DNA of 64,000 nt from positions 160,001 to 224,000 of the forward strand of contig OZ242376.1 in the NCBI GenBank assembly GCA_965209085.1, written 5' to 3'. Shown here in pieces: positions 28,551 to 36,441 of the stretch. Position 1 is the first letter of the stretch, and each line of letters begins with the position of its first letter. Under the pieces are notes generated by a model that did not search any database, was not told where the DNA came from, and saw nothing but the letters and a program-made list of their open reading frames with translations. The translations under genes were made by a program, and so were the position numbers. The stretch comes from Nitrosopumilaceae archaeon (GTDB lineage Archaea > Thermoproteota > Nitrososphaeria > Nitrososphaerales > Nitrosopumilaceae).

Positions 28551-28981
28551 TCTGCCCTGGTGGGGCAGTTTTGATTGGGACACTGCCTGCTCCATTTTTG
28601 TTTTCTTGAATACCGGAAAATGATGATGGGCCAGCCGCATTCACTGCATGCCTGTTTGAGTGCGCGCAGACGCGCCCGCTGTAGCAGGGGAGCCGTTGCC
28701 GAACATCCTCCTGAATAATTTGTGCATCCAAGAAACCTTTTCCGGGTTTTTGGCGAACGGACGACTAGTATGTGGCCAAATTTGCATTCCGGACATTGAA
28801 CAAGGCAGCCTTTTGGCGAGCTCGTACCCAATATTACATATTTTTTTTTGGCAATGGACCATGAAAGATATCCGTTTGAATCATAGCATTGCTCAATCTC
28901 TTCCCTGAATGCAAGTATTCTTGCCCGAGTTACCCTTATCGAGTGGCGCTGGACTAGTACTGTTTTTTGTTTGTGTACCAT
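28547..28981 (-). CDS. Stand-alone topoisomerase C4 zinc-ribbon protein
   Basis: CPEC...RFLGCTNYSGGC...CSECG...CPNQNC; start moved to ATG 28981. Confidence 0.85.
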   Translation of the reverse strand: MVHKQKTVLVQRHSIRVTRARILAFREEIEQCYDSNGYLSWSIAKKKYVILGTSSPKGCLVQCPECKFGHILVVRSPKTRKRFLGCTNYSGGCSATAPLLQRARLRALKQACSECGWPIIIFRYSRKQKWSRQCPNQNCPTRAD

Positions 28982-29042
28982 ACATTTGTGTACACGATAC
29001 GCCAATAAAACGATTTTATATGGATGTGAAATATTTTCATTT

Positions 29043-30197
29043 GTGGAAAACGTCTGCGTACTGGGAGCTGGCAGCACAAAATACGGCAAATTACAAGAAA
29101 GTCTTTCTGATATAACGGTGCAGGCATCAGTTGCCGCAATAAAGAGCGCGGGAATAGATCCAAAAGAAATTGGAGCCGGATACATTTCAAACGTTTTTGG
29201 CATAGCCGACAAACAGGTTCACCTAGGTCCTGTAATTATGAGCAATCTTGGAATTCCGGAAAAACCGTCCCTCACGATAGAATCCGCATGCGGCAGTGGT
29301 TCAGTATCGTTTAGAGAGGCGTTTGCAAACGTGGCTGCGGGATTTTACGACGCCGTACTGGTCACCGGCACGGAAAAAGTCACGCACACGGGCACGGAAT
29401 GGACCACGACATATTTTTCATATTGTTCTGATTTCTTTTATGAAGGACAAGCGGGAGCCTCGTTTCCGGGACTGTTTGCCTCCATGGCTAGGGCATACCT
29501 TGATGAATTTGACGCGACAGAGGAGGACTTTGCCCACGTGGCAGTTAAAAACCACGAGAACGGAATATTAAACCCAAAGGCACATCTGCAGAAAAAAATT
29601 ACCATCGATGACGTTTTACAATCCGCCGTTGTTGCAAGTCCGTTAAAATTATACGATTGCTGCCCATTCTCTGACGGTGCAAGCTCAGTCATACTGTGCA
29701 ACGAAAAATTTGCCAAAGAACACGGAGGAGATTATGTGCAGGTTATAGGTTCAGGACGCGGCGGCTCTCCGGCGGCATTGCAGGGGCGCGAACACATGAC
29801 CACCATACCAAGTACAAAATCCGCTGCAGAAGCGGCATACAAAATGGCGGGCATTACTCCAAAGGATGTTGATTTTGCCGAAGTGCATGACTGCTTTACC
29901 GTTGCAGAGGTTGTGGATACAGAAGATTTGGGATTTTTCGACAAAGGCACTGGAGCTAAAGCTGCAAGAGAAGGATTAACCCGCCTTAACAGCGAGATTT
30001 CAATAAACCCGTCAGGCGGATTAAAGTCAAAAGGTCATCCAATAGGTGCCACCGGCGTAGGCCAGATTGTGGAAGTTTATGATCAGCTGACCGGCGCTGC
30101 AGGTAGACGCACGGTAAACGATGCCAAAATAGGATTGACACATAACTTTGGCGCCACCGGAGCCAGCTGCGCTGTGCATATATTCAAGAGTGTGTAA
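29043..30197 (+). CDS. Archaeal thiolase (acetyl-CoA C-acetyltransferase)
   Basis: ESACGSG, SDGAS, AEVHDCF, NPSGGLKSKGHPIGATG; GTG 29043. Confidence 0.95.
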   Translation: MENVCVLGAGSTKYGKLQESLSDITVQASVAAIKSAGIDPKEIGAGYISNVFGIADKQVHLGPVIMSNLGIPEKPSLTIESACGSGSVSFREAFANVAAGFYDAVLVTGTEKVTHTGTEWTTTYFSYCSDFFYEGQAGASFPGLFASMARAYLDEFDATEEDFAHVAVKNHENGILNPKAHLQKKITIDDVLQSAVVASPLKLYDCCPFSDGASSVILCNEKFAKEHGGDYVQVIGSGRGGSPAALQGREHMTTIPSTKSAAEAAYKMAGITPKDVDFAEVHDCFTVAEVVDTEDLGFFDKGTGAKAAREGLTRLNSEISINPSGGLKSKGHPIGATGVGQIVEVYDQLTGAAGRRTVNDAKIGLTHNFGATGASCAVHIFKSV

Positions 30198-30200
30198 AAA

Positions 30201-30566
30201 ATGGCAAACAAGGAAAAATTTATCAATGCTGCCAAATCCGGCAAAATCCTGATTGAAAAATGCGTAAAATGCGGCTACTGCCATTTGGCCACAGTCTATT
30301 TTTGCCAAAAATGCGGCGGTTCTGATTTTACCGACGAGATACTAGATGGTTCAGGCAAAGTGGTAACATATACGATAATCACGGTGCCTCCGGACGGCTT
30401 TGAAAAACATGTTCCATATGCATGGGTGGTTTTAAAATTGGACGGATCAGATCTGCGCGTTTCAGGTTTTATGGCCGACATAAAGGCCCCATCTGATCTG
30501 CCAATCGGCACTGAATCCCGGATAACAGGATTTGACGATCGGGGCATCATAATCGAGCAAAAATAG
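30201..30566 (+). CDS. DUF35 Zn-ribbon/OB-fold protein (thiolase partner)
   Basis: KCVKCG...FCQKCG, GKVVTYT, PYA; directly after the thiolase. Confidence 0.92.
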   Translation: MANKEKFINAAKSGKILIEKCVKCGYCHLATVYFCQKCGGSDFTDEILDGSGKVVTYTIITVPPDGFEKHVPYAWVVLKLDGSDLRVSGFMADIKAPSDLPIGTESRITGFDDRGIIIEQK

Positions 30567-30622: not shown

Positions 30623-30784
30623 ATGTCTGTAGATATAACATGTGGCAAATGTGGGAAAAAAATAACCACATTGAAAATGATAAAACCCATAAAAGATGTC
30701 ATGGCAGCATATGATGGCAAATGTCCGTTCTGCAAACAAAAACTTTCCACATCGGAATTTTCTCTTGACAGGGTTGAAAACTGA
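30623..30784 (+). CDS. Small zinc-finger protein (53 aa)
   Basis: CGKCG...KCPFC. Confidence 0.8.
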   Translation: MSVDITCGKCGKKITTLKMIKPIKDVMAAYDGKCPFCKQKLSTSEFSLDRVEN

Positions 30785-30825
30785 TCGTCAAAAGTTTTAT
30801 TTAGTGTACGACTAGTAGAAACACT

Positions 30826-32919
30826 ATGGAAATGCAAGAAGGCATGGAAACAAAACGTAGTGGTCTTCTCCTATCCCAGGCAAAACGCGTAAAAATGATC
30901 TTTTCGGTCATGGCAAGTCCAAACCGCATAGACATCCTTCGAATTCTCAATTCAAAAGGTCCTCTGACGTATTCAGAACTGAAATCACTTGCTGGCTTTA
31001 AATCCAAAAAAGAGAGCGGCAAATTCGCCTACCATCTGCGCAAACTACTCAGACAGTCACTGGTGGCACTGAACAAATCCGAGCGCCGATATACGATTAC
31101 AAATTTGGGTCAGCTGGTTCTAAGCCTTGCCCGACAGATAGAGGAACGCTCGGTCATAGAAAGCGGCAAAATGTACGTGCGTACGTCACACGAATCAATC
31201 GAGGAATTTGCCTCCCATAAAATTACCCAGTCGCTTGCAAAAGAGGGCGGATTGCCGGAGAATCTGGCACAAAAAATCAGCGAAGAAGTTGAGAATCGAA
31301 TATACAAGTACCAGCCTTCGTATCTTACCGGGTCACTCATACGTGAAATGGTAAACGCTGTTCTTATGGAACACGGACACGAAGAATATAGAAACAAACT
31401 TGCACGACTTGGAATGCCCGTATATGATATTGCCGACACGTTTTCAAACATTGAAAAAGTTGGCAGTGGAATAGACAGCTTGGTTTCAAAGATTGGATCC
31501 ACGGTATTTTCAGAATTTCTTCTCTTGGAAAAACTTCCAAAAGATATTGCAGATTCACATCTTGGCGGCGATTTACACATTACAAATACCGGACTGTGGT
31601 CTCTTTTACCTGATACAATATTTACAAGCATAAAGGAACTTGCCGACGACGGATTGGATTTGGGAGGAAAACTTTTAAACGTTTCAAGATTGGCTCCAGT
31701 GAAAACTTTGGACGGAATAGTATCCGCATTATCCATAATCGTTTCACTTGTTTCACGGGAAGCCTCACAGGAAGTCGTATTGGACGGACTTGTACAATTG
31801 GTTTCAAAATATTCAAAAAATATTGGAGAATTTGAAGAAAAACTGGTTTTTGCATTTGCTACAGCTTCTGCATCATTACAGCACGGAAGAGATTCAGGCA
31901 CCGTTACATTTAGACTGGCACTTGGATCTGATACAAAGATAATTCGTGCCATAATTTCAGCCTATGTACAATATGTCAAAATTACTCCAATACCCAAACT
32001 GGGTCTGGCAATAGATACCGAAGCGGGATCCCTCTCAGATGTCTCAGCCGGTCTGGCCGAGGCCATCTCATTTGGAGGCAGAATATCCATAGGAAAGGGT
32101 CATTTTTCCACACGCGGCATATCCAACAAAACCCAAAAAGGCTCCGAGTTACCGGCTCAAAAACTTGAATCCATAACGATAAACCTGCCCCGCTTGGCTT
32201 TTGAGGCAAACAAGGATGAGACCTATTTTAGAGCAAGACTTGCCATGCTGGTAACTCCGGCATTTGCAGCCATGGCTCAGCGCAAAAAAGACGTATCGGA
32301 TATGACTAGACGCGGTTTAAACCCCATCATGTCAAAGAACACCCAGTATATGCAAAGAGGATCTTCAACACTGGTACTCAACCTAGTCGGTCTGCATGAG
32401 GCAGTTTACAACATACTTGGCATCAACAATGAGAAAAAATGCCAAAGTATAATGTACAAAGTACTGGAAACGGCAGTAGATCGCGCCAAAAAAGAGGGTA
32501 AAATACTTGGTGAAAATATTCATGTATCCATGACCGAAAATGACGGAACATCAAGATTTATCGTCCTAGATTCGGAAAAATATGGGAAAAATTCAGCTAT
32601 TAGAGATTTAACTGACGAATCATACTCGGAGGGATTAGTATTGGACGGATCTAAAGCGAAAGAGTTTACCGATCATAGTGGAGAGATCGTACAGTGCAAT
32701 AAAACACATAAACTGCTCAACGGAGGAATGCTCATCAGACTCCAGATCCCAAAAGATGCTGATGTTGCATCAATCAAGAGCACGATCGAAAAATTGTCAA
32801 TTCTATTGCCATTTTTCAGATCGGATAAACACGTTTCCATGTGTGGCGAATGCGGTTACAAGGATTCTGCCCTTGAATTAAAATGTCCAAAGTGCAAATC
32901 CCCGTACATTGTCCAATAA
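30826..32919 (+). CDS. wHTH + ATP-cone + catalytically degenerate class III RNR (NrdD-like) fusion; putative transcription regulator
   Basis: ASPNRIDILRIL...SGKFAYHLRKL wHTH; VRTS...IREMVNAVL ATP cone; SHLGGDLHI, TINLPRLA, VGLHEA, RFIVLDSEKYG, NGG and CGEC/CPKC NrdD landmarks; no RxxGY. Confidence 0.85.
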   Translation: MEMQEGMETKRSGLLLSQAKRVKMIFSVMASPNRIDILRILNSKGPLTYSELKSLAGFKSKKESGKFAYHLRKLLRQSLVALNKSERRYTITNLGQLVLSLARQIEERSVIESGKMYVRTSHESIEEFASHKITQSLAKEGGLPENLAQKISEEVENRIYKYQPSYLTGSLIREMVNAVLMEHGHEEYRNKLARLGMPVYDIADTFSNIEKVGSGIDSLVSKIGSTVFSEFLLLEKLPKDIADSHLGGDLHITNTGLWSLLPDTIFTSIKELADDGLDLGGKLLNVSRLAPVKTLDGIVSALSIIVSLVSREASQEVVLDGLVQLVSKYSKNIGEFEEKLVFAFATASASLQHGRDSGTVTFRLALGSDTKIIRAIISAYVQYVKITPIPKLGLAIDTEAGSLSDVSAGLAEAISFGGRISIGKGHFSTRGISNKTQKGSELPAQKLESITINLPRLAFEANKDETYFRARLAMLVTPAFAAMAQRKKDVSDMTRRGLNPIMSKNTQYMQRGSSTLVLNLVGLHEAVYNILGINNEKKCQSIMYKVLETAVDRAKKEGKILGENIHVSMTENDGTSRFIVLDSEKYGKNSAIRDLTDESYSEGLVLDGSKAKEFTDHSGEIVQCNKTHKLLNGGMLIRLQIPKDADVASIKSTIEKLSILLPFFRSDKHVSMCGECGYKDSALELKCPKCKSPYIVQ

Positions 32920-33087
32920 CTCAGATCTAGATCGATAATTTACCGATCACGAATTCTACCTACCCCTCAATTCTCAATTAACGGCATCGATCAAAATCAT
33001 CTAAAAATAATTGATCATTTGTGAACCAAAAACCGACCAAATTTTTATAACCACCCAAGTTTAAACAATAATTGGTGCAGTTATAAC

Positions 33088-35745
33088 GTGGATCATTCAT
33101 CAACTATTGAAGCAAATATCGCCTCTATAAAGAAAAGAAGCGGATCCATGGTCTCATTTAACCTCGAACAGGTCTCAGCTGCGATATACAAGGCTCTCTC
33201 TGCAACTGGTAAATCTAATAGAGATCTGGCAGGCGATATATCAAAAAATGTCCTAAGTGAGCTAACCGGACACGGATTCTCCTCGTCCAATCCTCCTACC
33301 GTGGAGGACATACAGGATGTGGTTGAATCCACACTAATCGATCTTGGTCACAGCGAAGCTGCAAAAGCGTTCATTCTGTACAGACACGAACGACGCAAGC
33401 TTCGTGAGGCAAAAATGAAGGTGTTAAACACTAGCACTTTGGACGCTGTGGCAAAAGCATTTGACATAAACTGCCTAAAAATTCTAGCTTCACGTTATCT
33501 ATTGCGAAACAACAAGGGCGATATAACAGAAAGTCCGGAACAAATGTTCCAACGGGTTGCCATGCTAATTACCGTGGGCGACATTTTATACGATTCGGAG
33601 ATCTTTGATGGTACAGGAAACATAGCACAGGATACTGCGGTGGCAGAATCATATTATTCAAAACTGGACAGCTTTGATTTTAAATTCAAAATTGGAGAAC
33701 ATTACCTGAACAAATACCATTTCCGTTCATTCATAGGTCATTACATAACACTTGCAAATAAAGGACACATGAAAGTGGACTTTAAACAGCTTTTGACAAT
33801 GCTGGTTGCCAAAAAATTTGATTCGTATGCGGCAAGACTGGACGAATATACAAAAATGATGACCGCGCAAAACTTTCTTCCAAACTCTCCAACAATGATG
33901 AATGCCGGCGCAAGATTGGGCCAGCTATCCGCGTGTTTTGTACTGGATATGCAAGATGACATGGCAAAAATAATGAAATCAACCACGGATGCGGCTCTAA
34001 TCTTCAAATCTGGTGGCGGTGTCGGAATAAATTACTCGTCCCTGCGGCAGGAAGGCGATATCGTAGCATCCACTTCAGGCGTAGCTTCAGGACCTGTCTC
34101 ATTCATGAACATCATAAACACCGTAACAGAGGTGGTAAAACAGGGAGGTAAGCGCCGTGGAGCAAATATGGGAATCATGGAGGTATGGCACCCTGATATT
34201 GAAAAATTCATCACACACAAGACAGAGCCGGGAAATCTTGAAAACTTTAACGTCAGTATAGGCATTTGGGAAGACTTTTGGAAGGCACTTGTTGATTCTG
34301 AAGACGGCAAATATGCTCTGCGCAACGTAAAGGACAGGTCTCCTATACGGGAGATAAACGCACACCAGTTGATGGACGTTATTGCAATGTCCGCATGGAA
34401 GAGTGGAGAACCGGGACTGATATTCCTTGATCAAATAAACAAATACAATGTATTTGCCAAAGCCCGTGGCGGCCCGATACGTGCAACAAATCCATGCGGC
34501 GAACAAAGTCTGTATCCATACGAATCCTGCAATTTGGGATCGATAAACCTTGCAAATTTGGTAAAGCGTACCGCCAATGGCCAGTATGAGTTTGATTGGC
34601 AAGGATATGAGGAACTTATCCGCAAAACTACAAGATATTTGGACAACGTTATAGACGTAAACCTTTATCCTGTTGATGAGATTGATCGCGCATCCAAAGA
34701 ATCACGACGTATAGGACTGGGAGTAATGGGAGTTGCGGATCTGTTATACAAACTGCGCATACCTTACAATTCAAAACAAGGATACGATCTCCAGTCAAAA
34801 CTTGCAGAGACACTCACATATTATTCAATGGAAGAGAGCGTGGCACTTGCAAAATCGCGCGGCGCTTTCCCGCTGTGTTCAAAGACCGAATACGCCGATG
34901 GCAAAATTCCGGTAGCTGGCTATTATGAGATTCCAAAAGATCAACACATCTATGACTGGGATGCACTGATTGCAAAAATAAAGACGCACGGAATACGCAA
35001 CGTGCTGACAACCACGGTTGCCCCAACCGGCACACTCTCCATGATAGCTGACTGTACAAACGGCATGGAGCCTACATTTGCACTGGTATTTGAAAAACGC
35101 GTGACAGTGGGACGATTTTTCTATACAAACAAAATTATCGAGCAAATGCTAAAGGACGAAAAAGTCTACAACGACGAAATTTTGGAAAAAATTGCAGACA
35201 ACTATGGATCTTTGCGCGGTATAGAAGGCGTTCCTGAATGGATGCAAAATATCTACATTACGGCAATGGATATACACTGGTCCGATCACCTGATGGCACA
35301 GGCTGTCTGGCAAAAGTGGATAGGCAACGCAATTGCAAAGACAATCAACATGCCGTACGATGCAACCACAGAAGACGTTAAAGCCGCCTATCTTTTGGCA
35401 CACGAACTTGGACTAAAGGGCATTACAGTCTACAGGGACGGTTCAAGGCACAAACAGGTACTGCACATGACCAGCGATAAAGCGAAAAAAACCTTTGATG
35501 TAAAACCCAGCAAACATGTCGTGGAATTTATCAAATCAACGATTACCAACAAGTATATTCTAAAACACGTTATTGCCGCATTAAACACCCCGATTTCAGA
35601 CGATCGTATAACCGAACATATTCCACAAACGTTGGAAGACATTCCAGAAGACTCTTTGTGTCCAACATGCAAAAGCATACTTATCTTTTCTGAAGGATGC
35701 AGCACCTGCATTGAATGCGGTCACAGCGGATGCACATCGGGCTAA
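33088..35745 (+). CDS. nrdJ: Class II (adenosylcobalamin-dependent) ribonucleotide reductase with N-terminal ATP cone
   Basis: IKKRSG ATP cone, PNSPTMMNAG, LSACFV, QGGKRRGANM, TNPCGEQ, VAPTGT, KGITVYRDGSR, C-terminal Cys cluster. Confidence 0.96.
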   Translation: MDHSSTIEANIASIKKRSGSMVSFNLEQVSAAIYKALSATGKSNRDLAGDISKNVLSELTGHGFSSSNPPTVEDIQDVVESTLIDLGHSEAAKAFILYRHERRKLREAKMKVLNTSTLDAVAKAFDINCLKILASRYLLRNNKGDITESPEQMFQRVAMLITVGDILYDSEIFDGTGNIAQDTAVAESYYSKLDSFDFKFKIGEHYLNKYHFRSFIGHYITLANKGHMKVDFKQLLTMLVAKKFDSYAARLDEYTKMMTAQNFLPNSPTMMNAGARLGQLSACFVLDMQDDMAKIMKSTTDAALIFKSGGGVGINYSSLRQEGDIVASTSGVASGPVSFMNIINTVTEVVKQGGKRRGANMGIMEVWHPDIEKFITHKTEPGNLENFNVSIGIWEDFWKALVDSEDGKYALRNVKDRSPIREINAHQLMDVIAMSAWKSGEPGLIFLDQINKYNVFAKARGGPIRATNPCGEQSLYPYESCNLGSINLANLVKRTANGQYEFDWQGYEELIRKTTRYLDNVIDVNLYPVDEIDRASKESRRIGLGVMGVADLLYKLRIPYNSKQGYDLQSKLAETLTYYSMEESVALAKSRGAFPLCSKTEYADGKIPVAGYYEIPKDQHIYDWDALIAKIKTHGIRNVLTTTVAPTGTLSMIADCTNGMEPTFALVFEKRVTVGRFFYTNKIIEQMLKDEKVYNDEILEKIADNYGSLRGIEGVPEWMQNIYITAMDIHWSDHLMAQAVWQKWIGNAIAKTINMPYDATTEDVKAAYLLAHELGLKGITVYRDGSRHKQVLHMTSDKAKKTFDVKPSKHVVEFIKSTITNKYILKHVIAALNTPISDDRITEHIPQTLEDIPEDSLCPTCKSILIFSEGCSTCIECGHSGCTSG

Positions 35746-35763: not shown

Positions 35764-36441
35764 ATGCTTTCCCTAATAATTGCCGAATCCGCACTTGAGA
35801 GGATACCTGCGGTAATAACTGGTCATCCGTCAGTCACTTCTGTTGCAAAAAAATTCGGCAAATATCCCGGACGTATGATGCTTGACAAATCGTGGCATTT
35901 TAGCGCCATGCTGTCCATGGAAAACAAAGAGCGGCGCGGCCGTCCGGACATAGCGCATTTGTGCATGCTGATCGCGTGTGGAACGCCGTTGTACATGAAG
36001 GATCTGCTGCGCGTATACGTGCATACGGTCACCGATAAAGTAATCGAGATTGGTTCTGGAGTGCGCATGCCAAAATCATATCACAGATTTACCGGACTGA
36101 TGGAAGATCTGTATCTGGAAGGAAAAATAACGGATGATTCAGGACGCATACTTGCAGAGATAACGGACTGTGATTTTACAACATTAATTGAGACAATCGA
36201 GCCGGACGTTTTAATCGGAATGTCTACTGCCGGAAGTTCGGGCACATACGGGAGCATAGCTGCCAGATTTGATGAACACAATGACGGCTGCATCGTAATT
36301 GGAGGATTCCCAAAGGGACATTTTAGCGACAAGGTGGCCCAAAATCTTGAAGAGATATACTGCATACCTGGAGGTTCGCAGGAGACGCACGTGATTCTTT
36401 CAAGAATTCTCTACGAATGTGAGTGCCGTGTATTGCAGTAA
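35764..36441 (+). CDS. nep1: Nep1/Emg1 rRNA pseudouridine N1-methyltransferase
   Basis: RGRPDIAH, RMPKSYHRFTGLME, IGGFPKGHF. Confidence 0.94.
   Translation: MLSLIIAESALERIPAVITGHPSVTSVAKKFGKYPGRMMLDKSWHFSAMLSMENKERRGRPDIAHLCMLIACGTPLYMKDLLRVYVHTVTDKVIEIGSGVRMPKSYHRFTGLMEDLYLEGKITDDSGRILAEITDCDFTTLIETIEPDVLIGMSTAGSSGTYGSIAARFDEHNDGCIVIGGFPKGHFSDKVAQNLEEIYCIPGGSQETHVILSRILYECECRVLQ

Follow-up and report, generated by a model that had tools for sequence, protein, structure and literature searches.

To our knowledge, the control of ribonucleotide reductase (RNR) expression in archaea is largely unknown. Among the closest described systems is NrdR, the RNR-specific repressor of bacteria, a cone-bearing DNA-binding protein of ~150 aa, composed of an N-terminal Zn ribbon followed by an ATP-cone, which controls RNR genes and is often encoded near them; an ATP/dATP-driven oligomer switch has been measured for NrdR, and the protein is described as rare in archaea (PMC9110341). 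The class III reductase NrdD recognizes its substrate by the NxN flap and the HxHD motif, and in the ATP-cone of P. copri NrdD the basic residues Lys7, Arg8, Arg87, and Arg91 hold the (d)ATP phosphates (PMC11226230). A further design, in which a pathway enzyme or pseudo-enzyme domain is joined to a helix–turn–helix domain and controls the genes of its pathway, is represented by archaeal RbkR, a riboflavin kinase with an HTH that retains enzymatic activity, and by bacterial NrtR, a Nudix-like domain with a winged helix–turn–helix (wHTH) (PMC5397151, PMC2330246).

The gene described here lies upstream of nrdJ in the window, which is the whole 64,000-nt stretch of Nitrosopumilaceae DNA that was analyzed (Table 1). 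Its product shares with NrdR the presumed job, but there is no whole-protein homology between the two: the protein has 697 aa, it contains a complete RNR barrel, its cone lacks the Lys-Arg pair, and its presumed DNA binding would depend on an ArsR-type wHTH rather than on a Zn ribbon. It is also known from sequence and models, while the switch of NrdR was measured. With NrdD it has in common the fold, the Zn ribbon, the order of motifs, and the evolutionary origin, but it carries an extra N-terminal wHTH, it lacks the glycyl radical, the thiyl Cys, the first-strand Cys, and the NxN flap, one half of its HxHD motif is lost, and the genome does not encode an activase. The design is similar to that of RbkR and NrtR, although the folds and pathways are unrelated and the enzyme part is dead. 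No description of a wHTH–NrdD fusion was found in the searchable literature, and subscription journals and supplements, such as RNRdb or arCOG tables, may mention it; term look-ups within PMC9110341, PMC9669993, PMC4390871, and PMC9531940 did not return a description of the fusion.

Table 1. Features of the regulator–nrdJ locus, in window coordinates
Feature	Position	Strand	Evidence
Short promoter region of the regulator, candidate	30786..30825	+	Sequence
Regulator gene, whole (wHTH, variant cone, dead NrdD body, Zn ribbon)	30826..32919	+	ORF/translation, Pfam, AlphaFold2, structure matches
ArsR-type winged helix–turn–helix, aa 14-112, dimerization helices on the flanks	30865..31161	+	Pfam, model, dN/dS, dimer model
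Variant ATP-cone, aa 116-188, without canonical Lys-Arg	31171..31389	+	Pfam, alignment, dN/dS
NrdD-derived barrel body, aa 201-665, without catalytic and most substrate-binding residues	31426..32820	+	Pfam, TIGR02487, profile, columns
C-terminal CxxC...CxxC Zn ribbon, without a glycyl-radical domain after it	32821..32919	+	Invariant Cys, alignment
Regulator–nrdJ spacer, candidate operator and nrdJ promoter	32920..33087	+	Sequence, inverted repeats, GATC enrichment
nrdJ (885-aa ORF), class II RNR (adenosylcobalamin-dependent) that carries a canonical ATP-cone, presumed target	33088..35745	+	TIGR02504, ATP-cone, PF02867

The architecture of the protein was determined by comparing its translation with domain profiles. 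Residues 25-99 matched the Pfam families DUF7347 (40.7 bits, cut-off 27.6) and HTH_20 (32.5 bits, cut-off 27), the cone matched ATP-cone PF03477 (36.0 bits versus a gathering score of 25.8) over profile positions 1-75 of 88, and the body matched NRDD PF13597 (95.5 bits, cut-off 26.2). The score of the body in the NCBIfam equivalog for NrdD, TIGR02487, was 90 bits, which is below the cut-off of 326. The motifs MYVRTS (from residue 116), SHLGGDLHI (244-252), TINLPRLA (451-458), VGLHEA (521-526), RFIVLDSEKYG (577-587), and NGG (632-634), and the cysteine pairs C673/C676 and C687/C690 are all present in the translation, in agreement with the ORF, domains, and motifs given in an earlier reading of this DNA based on the sequence only. 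The four cysteines of the Zn ribbon are invariant in 53 of 53 sequences. A search of the PDB with the sequence alone returned just T. maritima NrdD with an E-value of 0.14, and hence searches with a profile and with a fold were required. The family profile matched solved NrdDs with E-values from 4e-38 to 8e-31. The AlphaFold2 model (pLDDT 87.6, pTM 0.79) had class III RNRs as its best Foldseek matches (E 7e-20 to 1e-13), and the Foldseek and Pfam NRDD matches showed that the ten-stranded barrel and the C-terminal Zn ribbon of NrdD are present.

To compare the body with functional enzymes, it was aligned with 12 catalytic archaeal NrdDs and E. coli NrdD, and the same columns were inspected in 49 family members, 22 of the Nitrososphaerales type and 27 of the Bathyarchaeia type. 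The alignment bore out the loss of the catalytic Cys and Gly residues that had been proposed from the sequence: T264 is located at the position of E. coli C175 and N434 at that of the thiyl C384, and the loop 425-439 does not contain any Cys. A cysteine at the C175 column was found in none of the members of either type, and at the C384 column in 1 of the 22 and 0 of the 27, respectively. The stop codon follows 7 residues after the last Cys (C690), no R-x-x-G-Y motif is present, and no residue is aligned at E. coli G681. The glycyl-radical domain is wholly missing in the Nitrososphaerales-type members, while in the Bathyarchaeia type it is reduced to a vestige of 35-45 aa, in which the Gly is retained in 9 of 27. 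In the regulator, all elements of the radical chemistry have been lost. The substrate-recognition motifs are also affected: an NxN flap counterpart is missing in 49 of 49 members, and HxHD reads H-I-T-N in this protein, with the second His retained in 0/22 and 1/27 members of the two types. Among 98 columns invariant in NrdD, 13 are retained at a level of at least 90% in both subfamilies. These observations support the view that the protein is descended from NrdD, is non-catalytic, and carries a putative DNA-binding domain as a fusion.

The proposal that the protein has kept reductase activity, or catalyzes another radical reaction by means of an unrecognized radical source, could draw on the barrel fold and on the residues N453, R456, R577, D582, Y600, and G633-G634, which are retained in the region of the active site. 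It is nevertheless extremely improbable, given the missing cysteines at both catalytic positions, the missing glycyl-radical domain, the loss of the NxN flap and HxHD, and the content of the genome, which was searched as one contig of 1.69 Mb, 98% complete. The lack of nrdG, originally noticed in the window, extends to this complete genome, where no match to NrdG exceeded the cut-off (TIGR02491 best 29.5 bits versus 126.1; TIGR02495 best 56.6 versus 131.15), and the best-scoring genes are a member of the viperin family and a QueE-like gene. The genome search also returned no match to the Gly_radical domain PF01228 and no second NRDD match. The organism, which carries amoA, is an aerobic ammonia oxidizer, and its nrdJ is complete, as previously proposed, with 722.5 bits in TIGR02504 (cut-off 399.95), 60.6 bits for the ATP-cone, and a GTG start that fits the N-termini found in relatives. 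No other gene of the genome matched PF02867, and nrdJ is its only RNR. NrdR (TIGR00244) gave nothing over the cut-off genome-wide and no match in the regulator gene. Public sources often label the protein as an anaerobic RNR, which is the mis-annotation that had been anticipated. The same retained residues were also considered as a sign of persisting NTP binding at the dead active site; this claim was dropped, as the named contact motifs NxN and HxHD are lost and the residues are not tied to ligand contacts.

The sequence-only reading went further, and assumed that the allosteric body of NrdD, i.e., the ATP-cone together with the dNTP specificity site, was preserved and reads (d)NTP pools. The data did not support this assumption as worded: the motifs by which functional NrdDs bind nucleotides are largely lost. 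The cone reads V-R-T-S in 49 of 49 family members and V-x-K-R in catalytic NrdDs, so that the canonical Lys-Arg is replaced by Thr120-Ser121; this comparison of phosphate ligands is made at the Lys-Arg pair, the last-helix pair being not confidently alignable. The Q-x-P-F sequence of loop 2 in the specificity path is retained in 0 of 49 members. With these losses in the cone, the substrate-recognition motifs, and the specificity path, the case for nucleotide reading is weaker than first proposed. On the other hand, the cone is the domain with the strongest constraint, and an identical cone variant is present in the intact catalytic sister NrdD. Nucleotide sensing is thus possible, and nucleotides would be the obvious ligand candidates, though we consider them somewhat less likely than not because most of the known nucleotide-contact motifs are missing.

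ArsR/SmtB family proteins form dimers, structures of which have been solved, with the first and last helices at the interface. In the model of the N-terminal domain, helices 14-29, 32-44, 49-56, and 61-76 are followed by a wing (80-91) and a helix (93-112), and hence both the profile match, above the cut-off for HTH_20, and the topology of an ArsR-type wHTH are present. In contrast to the metalloregulators, the protein has ~600 extra residues, comprising the cone and the RNR body, and its match to the NCBIfam metalloregulator model was weak (24 bits) and did not reach the cut-off of 55. A homodimer model of the N-terminal 215 aa scored 0.47, compared with 0.01 for the best control, above a mark attained by 20 of the 30 proteins whose solved structures are pairs and by 1 of the 23 whose solved structures are single chains; the predicted interface is formed by helices 14-35 and 93-113, at least 72% of contacts were common to the runs, and the pLDDT of the partner was at least 66. 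This result may reflect likeness to ArsR-type dimers, because such dimers are among solved structures.

The same features could be explained by action mainly at the level of protein, in which the cone or the dimer interface binds NrdJ or NrdD and modulates or localizes the enzyme, with the wHTH tethering the complex to DNA instead of controlling transcription. Cone domains are present in both proteins, the fold is common to all RNR classes, with weaker matches of the model to class I RNRs (E 1e-6), and the order of the genes, regulator then RNR, suits co-expression. However, the partner is a class II enzyme at some loci and a class III enzyme at others, and the two have different surfaces, the regulator and nrdJ have separate promoter-like A/T boxes, and the conserved recognition helix, with Y69 and H70 invariant in 53 sequences, points to sequence-specific reading of DNA, which makes this explanation improbable. 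Domain identity and gene order together suggest that the protein would bind DNA and control nrdJ.

To understand the origin of the protein, its relatives were compared. Longer relatives, with the decayed glycyl-radical tail, are found in Bathyarchaeia, and shorter ones in Aigarchaeota and Asgard archaea. All 32 wHTH-fused sequences in the tree form one clade (SH-aLRT 99), which is sister to adjacent catalytic NrdDs, and the wHTH-fused family therefore has a single evolutionary origin beside this catalytic NrdD subclass. The relatives in these three groups and the one-clade origin of the fused forms are new here. The Pfam NRDD score is 482 bits in the adjacent catalytic NrdD and falls to 308 (Bathyarchaeia type), 202 (Asgard type), and 96 (the regulator), with no match in the Aigarchaeota type. 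Such stepwise erosion could be expected of a decaying relic of an ancestral nrdD that is functionless today, but this reading is contradicted by the selection analysis and is hardly credible. For three pairs, the dN/dS of the whole protein was 0.044-0.081; by domain, it was 0.003-0.008 (wHTH), 0-0.023 (cone), and 0.06-0.12 (body), at saturated dS. The cone, which is under tighter constraint than any other part of the protein, had zero non-synonymous changes against a congener at a dS of 0.9. The full-length protein was found in 39 of 41 related genomes, with the reading frame intact in 37 of these 39 and one in-frame stop in each of the other two (G019 and G030), and 25 columns are invariant across 53 sequences with identity down to 21%. 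The gene is under strong purifying selection. Of 401 genomes searched in the phylum, 276 contain its N-terminal module, including 56 of 56 of the family to which the window belongs.

The neighborhood of the gene was compared in other lineages. Among 29 other loci of the order, an RNR alpha gene adjoins the regulator in 28, downstream on the same strand in 27 and divergently in 1, while the remaining locus ends at the contig edge; the gene is thus tightly linked to RNR genes in the order. In 12 fetched Bathyarchaeia-type loci, 4 of which were chosen because their coordinates looked adjacent to an RNR gene, the regulator is directly upstream of an intact nrdD in 4 and upstream of nrdJ in 2, and has unrelated neighbors in 6. 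Three of the 4 nrdD loci were checked for the identity of the intervening ORF: Pfam assigns it to glutaredoxin in L059, and its counterparts in L057 and L060 are recognizably similar. Outside the order of the window, regulator and RNR genes are at most 5 kb apart in a minority, ~5 of ~50 genomes, as counted by eye from printed coordinates and not by a script. The linkage persists while the class of the RNR partner changes, because nrdD or nrdJ adjoins the regulator in different lineages.

These data bear on an alternative in which the protein is a transcription factor that is not specific for RNR, the dead body being a scaffold, an oligomerization module, or a sensor of a non-nucleotide signal, and the regulon being broader (replication, division, redox), with nrdJ at most one of the targets. 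The eroded nucleotide-contact motifs, the majority of Bathyarchaeia-type genomes without an adjoining RNR gene, the Aigarchaeota-type NrdD body below Pfam significance, and a weak CdvA-like neighbor of the family member at L066 would fit such a role. Against it are the adjacency to RNR at 28 of the 29 loci, which recurs with the other RNR class in another archaeal class, and the strongest constraint being on the cone. We consider this alternative unlikely, and a functional tie to RNR likely, because the adjacency across two RNR classes is hard to explain otherwise.

The non-coding regions were inspected for sites at which the protein could act. An A/T box, AAAGTTTTATTTAG, is located at 30791-30804, ~25 nt upstream of the ATG of the regulator, and a near-identical block, (T)AGTCAcAAgTCTTAtTTA, occurs at equal distance in most of the Nitrosopumilaceae loci compared, which could correspond to a TATA/BRE element with a leaderless start. 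The spacer before nrdJ contains an A/T box at 33042-33050, five GATC boxes (32924, 32930, 32945, 32989, and 33013), and a palindrome, AATTGATCATTT, at 33009-33020. GATC is the top enriched tetramer of this spacer in 20 family loci (58 observed versus 18.5 expected, z 9.8), and of the 270 mid-size intergenic segments in this genome, 9, including the spacer, contain at least five GATC. In Bathyarchaeia-type loci, however, these boxes were not found, with 0-1 GATC per region, and other GATC clusters in the genome are partly within repeated, IS-like elements. GATC is therefore not established as the recognition site, and its enrichment in Nitrosopumilaceae spacers is treated as a lead only; the genes beside the GATC clusters of the genome did not make a regulon visible. 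The relatives have a conserved block upstream of the nrdJ A/T box, and the strongest of their conserved blocks, TATGAAnTTCATA...GGTGTCAA, was not found in this window. A scan for bacterial promoters and terminators gave 15 promoter-like sites versus 11.5 +/- 3.5 in shuffled sequence, using a bacterial model that is inapplicable to archaea.

Hence, the protein is probably a one-component transcription factor that acts as a homodimer on RNR genes and descends from a class III RNR; its binding to DNA, its target, the sign of its regulation, and its ligand are presumed. In the mechanism that we propose, the N-terminal ArsR-type winged helix would bind operator DNA, most likely the spacer before nrdJ and perhaps also the regulator's own promoter, and the variant cone and the dead NrdD barrel would serve as a signal-receiving or oligomerizing module that sets the affinity to DNA. 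In this way, a metabolic or cell-cycle signal could set how strongly the cell expresses its only reductase. The family could occupy the niche of NrdR in archaea. In a broader and more speculative proposal, about which we are more doubtful than confident, this protein would be the founding member of a TACK and Asgard family that acts as the archaeal master regulator of deoxynucleotide supply: a transcription factor of pseudo-enzyme type that originated a single time, when nrdD was duplicated in tandem and fused to a wHTH, that continues to control the later reductase of each lineage (nrdD in anaerobes, nrdJ in aerobic ammonia oxidizers), and that reads the nucleotide pool or cell-cycle state by the re-purposed cone and the dead active site. 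Built from the enzyme that it regulates, it would then correspond in function to bacterial NrdR.

The ammonia oxidizers of this family rank with the most numerous archaea of the oceans and of soils, and the gene most likely encodes a switch, so far undescribed, by which archaea regulate their supply of deoxynucleotides. If it is an RNR regulator, it would correct a common mis-annotation that gives aerobic archaea an apparent anaerobic reductase, it would provide a clean stepwise case of an enzyme becoming a transcription factor, with intermediates alive in other lineages, and it would offer a handle on the control of replication and the cell cycle in ammonia oxidizers.

The identification of the 697-aa ORF upstream of nrdJ as a dead class III ribonucleotide reductase (NrdD) fused to a DNA-binding domain was confirmed, and all motifs quoted in the sequence-only reading were found at their places in the translation. 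The regulator, as this protein is called below, scored 90 bits against the NCBIfam NrdD equivalog, which has a cut-off of 326. It is followed after a 168-nt spacer by nrdJ, and the claim that this next gene encodes an intact class II reductase held: its product is a complete adenosylcobalamin enzyme (TIGR02504, 722.5 bits vs cut-off 399.95) with a canonical cone (Pfam, 60.6 bits). The AlphaFold2 model of the regulator, built on an alignment of 53 sequences, had a mean pLDDT of 87.6 and a pTM of 0.79. The top matches of the model among solved structures were the class III reductases of S. thermophilus, T. maritima, P. copri and phage T4 (E 7e-20 to 1e-13), while class I enzymes were far weaker matches (E ~1e-6). 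The family profile matched the same NrdD chains (E 4e-38 to 8e-31) over a span from just past the cone to the Zn ribbon; a search of solved structures with the single regulator sequence gave E 0.14 at best. The gene after nrdJ is an ordinary one for an EMG1/NEP1-type pseudouridine methyltransferase (PF03587, 155 bits).

Features of the regulator–nrdJ region (window coordinates, or residues of the regulator where marked aa)
Feature	Position	Strand	Basis or remark
Thiolase-like ORF and DUF35/ChsH2 OB-fold gene	28971-30566	+	PF01796, PF12172
53-aa ORF, two CxxC pairs (small Zn ribbon)	30623-30784	+	ends 41 nt before regulator ATG
A/T box in the regulator's own upstream region (~40 nt)	30791-30804	+	~25 nt before ATG
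Regulator ORF, 697 aa, uninterrupted	30826-32919	+	translation
ArsR-type winged helix of regulator	aa 25-99		Pfam: DUF7347 40.7 bits, HTH_20 32.5 bits
ATP-cone of regulator	aa 116-188		Pfam: 36.0 bits; profile positions 1-75 of 88 only
NRDD family, regulator			Pfam: 95.5 bits
Double CxxC (Zn ribbon)	terminal end of regulator
Palindrome AATTGATCATTT in regulator–nrdJ spacer	33009-33020
A/T box in regulator–nrdJ spacer	33042-33050
nrdJ ORF, 885 aa	33088-35745	+	translation
EMG1/NEP1-type methyltransferase gene	35764-36441	+

The alignment columns of 22 family members of the Nitrososphaerales type and 27 of the longer Bathyarchaeia type were compared with those of 12 archaeal NrdDs over the NCBIfam cut-off and of E. 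coli NrdD, whose reference residues C175, C384 and G681 were checked in its sequence. The first-strand Cys (C175 column) was present in 0/22 and 0/27 members, respectively, and the thiyl Cys (C384 column) in 1/22, as a lone Cys-Arg, and 0/27. Proteins of the Nitrososphaerales type stop 4–12 residues past the Zn ribbon and have no glycyl-radical domain, which in the Bathyarchaeia type is reduced to a vestige of 35–45 residues that keeps the Gly in 9/27 and the preceding Arg in 22/27 members. These counts, in both types against the catalytic NrdDs, bear out the proposed loss of the catalytic Cys and Gly. The absence of nrdG, noticed earlier within the window, extends to the whole genome (a single 1.69-Mb contig, 98% complete), where the closest radical-SAM look-alikes proved to be one gene of the viperin family and one QueE-like gene. 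The search of this genome returned no Gly_radical domain, no second NRDD match and no NrdR; nrdJ is its only RNR barrel gene, and amoA was found. The viperin-family gene, located outside the window at ~1176465–1177310 (−) of the genome's contig G000:C1 (1177–2022 of L007, a locus fetched from it), encodes a 281-aa radical-SAM protein that scores 294 bits against the model of the prokaryotic viperin family (NF038283, cut-off 180). In this ammonia oxidiser it is a candidate antiviral enzyme that would modify nucleotides.

Despite the lost catalysis, its conservation shows that the regulator is a working protein. Nei–Gojobori dN/dS values for three orthologue pairs, which are rough because dS is near or above 1, were 0.044–0.081 overall, and by region 0.003–0.008 in the winged helix, 0–0.023 in the cone and 0.06–0.12 in the barrel. 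When the window is compared with its congener, the cone shows zero amino-acid changes at dS 0.9. Across 53 sequences, with identity down to 21%, 25 columns are invariant, including Y69 and H70 of the recognition helix, V118 and R119 of the cone, and the four Zn cysteines.

According to PMC11226230, the phosphate ligands of the P. copri NrdD cone are Lys7, Arg8, Arg87 and Arg91; NrdD recognizes its substrate through two motifs, the NxN flap and HxHD, and signals specificity through loop 2. The columns aligned to the cone Lys-Arg hold Thr-Ser in 49/49 family members, inside a V-R-T-S motif, and the last helix of the cone is shortened. None of the 49 aligned members of the two types has a counterpart of the NxN segment, the second His of HxHD is retained in 0/22 and 1/27, and the conserved Q-x-P-F of loop 2 in 0/49. 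Only 13 of the 98 near-invariant columns of catalytic NrdDs are retained at ≥90% in both types, which are H245, G248, N453, P455, R456, G522, R577, D582, Y600, G634 and three Zn cysteines. The allosteric apparatus is thus less intact than had been assumed, and residue conservation does not support the proposal that (d)NTP pools are read via a preserved cone and specificity site.

The word-index search detected 4064 relatives at E ≤0.001 among 8000 scored candidates, and the full scan of 50%-identity representatives 1057 at 1e-3, 582 at 1e-10 and 164 at 1e-30; the closest named relative is from a Cenarchaeum sponge symbiont (87% identity). The full-length protein was found in 39/41 related genomes spanning 17 families of the order, and the two genomes with no full-length match are 73% and 99% complete. 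The N-terminal 260 aa alone matched in 276/401 sampled genomes of the phylum, among them 56/56 of the window's family, and were unmatched in several other families of the phylum sample (e.g., 0/23, 0/16 and 0/15). Source names place the Bathyarchaeia type in that group, and the shorter forms with no Zn ribbon in Aigarchaeota/Caldarchaeum-like archaea, Helarchaeota and Odinarchaeia. Pfam confirmed winged helix, cone and NRDD in one Bathyarchaeia-type and one Helarchaeota member, and winged helix and cone only in an Aigarchaeota-type member. In the source records the proteins go by the names "ArsR regulator", "helix-turn-helix domain-containing" or "anaerobic ribonucleoside-triphosphate reductase". 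No description of the family was found in searches of the openly accessible full-text literature.

The survey of synteny with RNR genes showed that an RNR alpha gene adjoins the regulator in 28/29 other loci of the order. In 27 of them it follows the regulator on the same strand and in one it is divergent; the 29th locus ends at a contig edge. Catalytic NrdD over the cut-off was present in 102/201 sampled genomes of the phylum and in 0/27 of the window's family, where the regulator gene alone gave a weak match. In the 12 fetched Bathyarchaeia-type loci, a biased sample because four were chosen for apparent adjacency in coordinates, the regulator is directly upstream of nrdD in four and of nrdJ in two; the other six have unrelated neighbors (flavodoxin, PAS histidine kinase, V-ATPase E, DUF35 protein, phosphoesterase and aspartate carbamoyltransferase). 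In three of the four nrdD loci (L057, L059 and L060) a small ORF intervenes, which in L059 is a CPxC glutaredoxin of ~100 aa (PF00462, 39 bits) and in the other two is recognizably similar. Outside the order, coordinates compared by eye put regulator and nrdD no more than 5 kb apart in only ~5 of ~50 genomes. Hence, almost all Nitrososphaerales loci link the regulator to an RNR gene, and elsewhere the linkage recurs in a minority; the linked reductase changes class.

Several other neighbors were observed. Downstream of a Bathyarchaeia-type regulator, L066 6711–7646 (+) gives a weak, sub-threshold CdvA-like coiled-coil match (25.4 bits vs cut-off 30), which may point to a link with cell division. 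A DUF35 gene lies upstream of the regulator in the window and also just upstream of a Bathyarchaeia-type regulator (L062 6913–7308), a pattern that seems to reflect ancient gene order and not a functional connection. The 53-aa Zn-ribbon ORF matched no Pfam family over the cut-off. Most of the Nitrosopumilaceae loci compared carry its recognizable C-terminal coding sequence ahead of the regulator, and the ORF may encode a conserved partner or merely reflect conserved gene order.

In a quick maximum-likelihood tree (42 rows, 758 columns, E. coli as outgroup, SH-aLRT support only), all 32 winged-helix-fused proteins formed one clade (99), with the Nitrososphaerales type and the Aigarchaeota forms nested within a Bathyarchaeia-type grade. 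The sister group (99) consists of the four catalytic NrdDs encoded beside Bathyarchaeia-type regulators; other archaeal NrdDs are separate. These four keep NxN, HxHD, both cysteines and R-x-T-G-Y-Y, and share with the regulators both the linker signature and a cone of the variant form (V-R-x-T-D-G or V-R-T-S-K). The variant is therefore older than the loss of catalysis and works somehow in a live enzyme, and this NrdD subclass, catalytic but with an unusual cone, is worth biochemical study. The most economical history would be a tandem duplication of a variant-cone nrdD, followed by fusion to a winged helix, loss of catalytic residues (Bathyarchaeia type), and then loss of the radical domain (Nitrososphaerales type), the Zn ribbon being lost in the Aigarchaeota and Asgard forms. 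Along these proposed steps the Pfam NRDD scores drop from 482 (adjacent catalytic NrdD) to 308 (Bathyarchaeia type), 202 (Asgard type), 96 (regulator) and none (Aigarchaeota type).

Residues 1–215 of the regulator modeled as two copies scored 0.47 vs 0.01 for the best control, passing a mark reached by 20/30 proteins solved as pairs and 1/23 solved as single chains, although likeness to solved ArsR-type dimers may be the source of this pass. The runs share ≥72% of contacts with a partner pLDDT of ≥66, and the predicted interface consists of helices 14–35 and 93–113. On the DNA side, the block around the regulator's own A/T box is nearly identical across the family. The spacer contains five GATC boxes, and across the spacers of 20 family loci GATC is the top over-represented tetramer (58 observed vs 18.5 expected under a first-order model, z 9.8, the 20 related sequences not being independent) and occurs in 20/20. 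The window's spacer is among 9/270 mid-size intergenic segments of its genome with ≥5 GATC, and the boxes are absent from the Bathyarchaeia-type loci. Elsewhere in the genome, some of the GATC clusters belong to repeated elements: segments 753147–753511, 846455–846635 and 827554–827896 of G000:C1 share a repeat of ~40–60 nt in both orientations, one of them adjoins a 467-aa ORF, and they are possibly insertion element ends. Most relatives have a stronger block, TATGAAnTTCATA then GGTGTCAAnAnnnTTGAnC, upstream of the A/T box, of which the right end alone is recognizable in the window. The A/T box, palindrome, GATC boxes and conserved block are candidate operators, nothing more. The comparative evidence gives good support to the proposal that the protein is a DNA-binding pseudo-enzyme with a regulatory role linked to the RNR genes.
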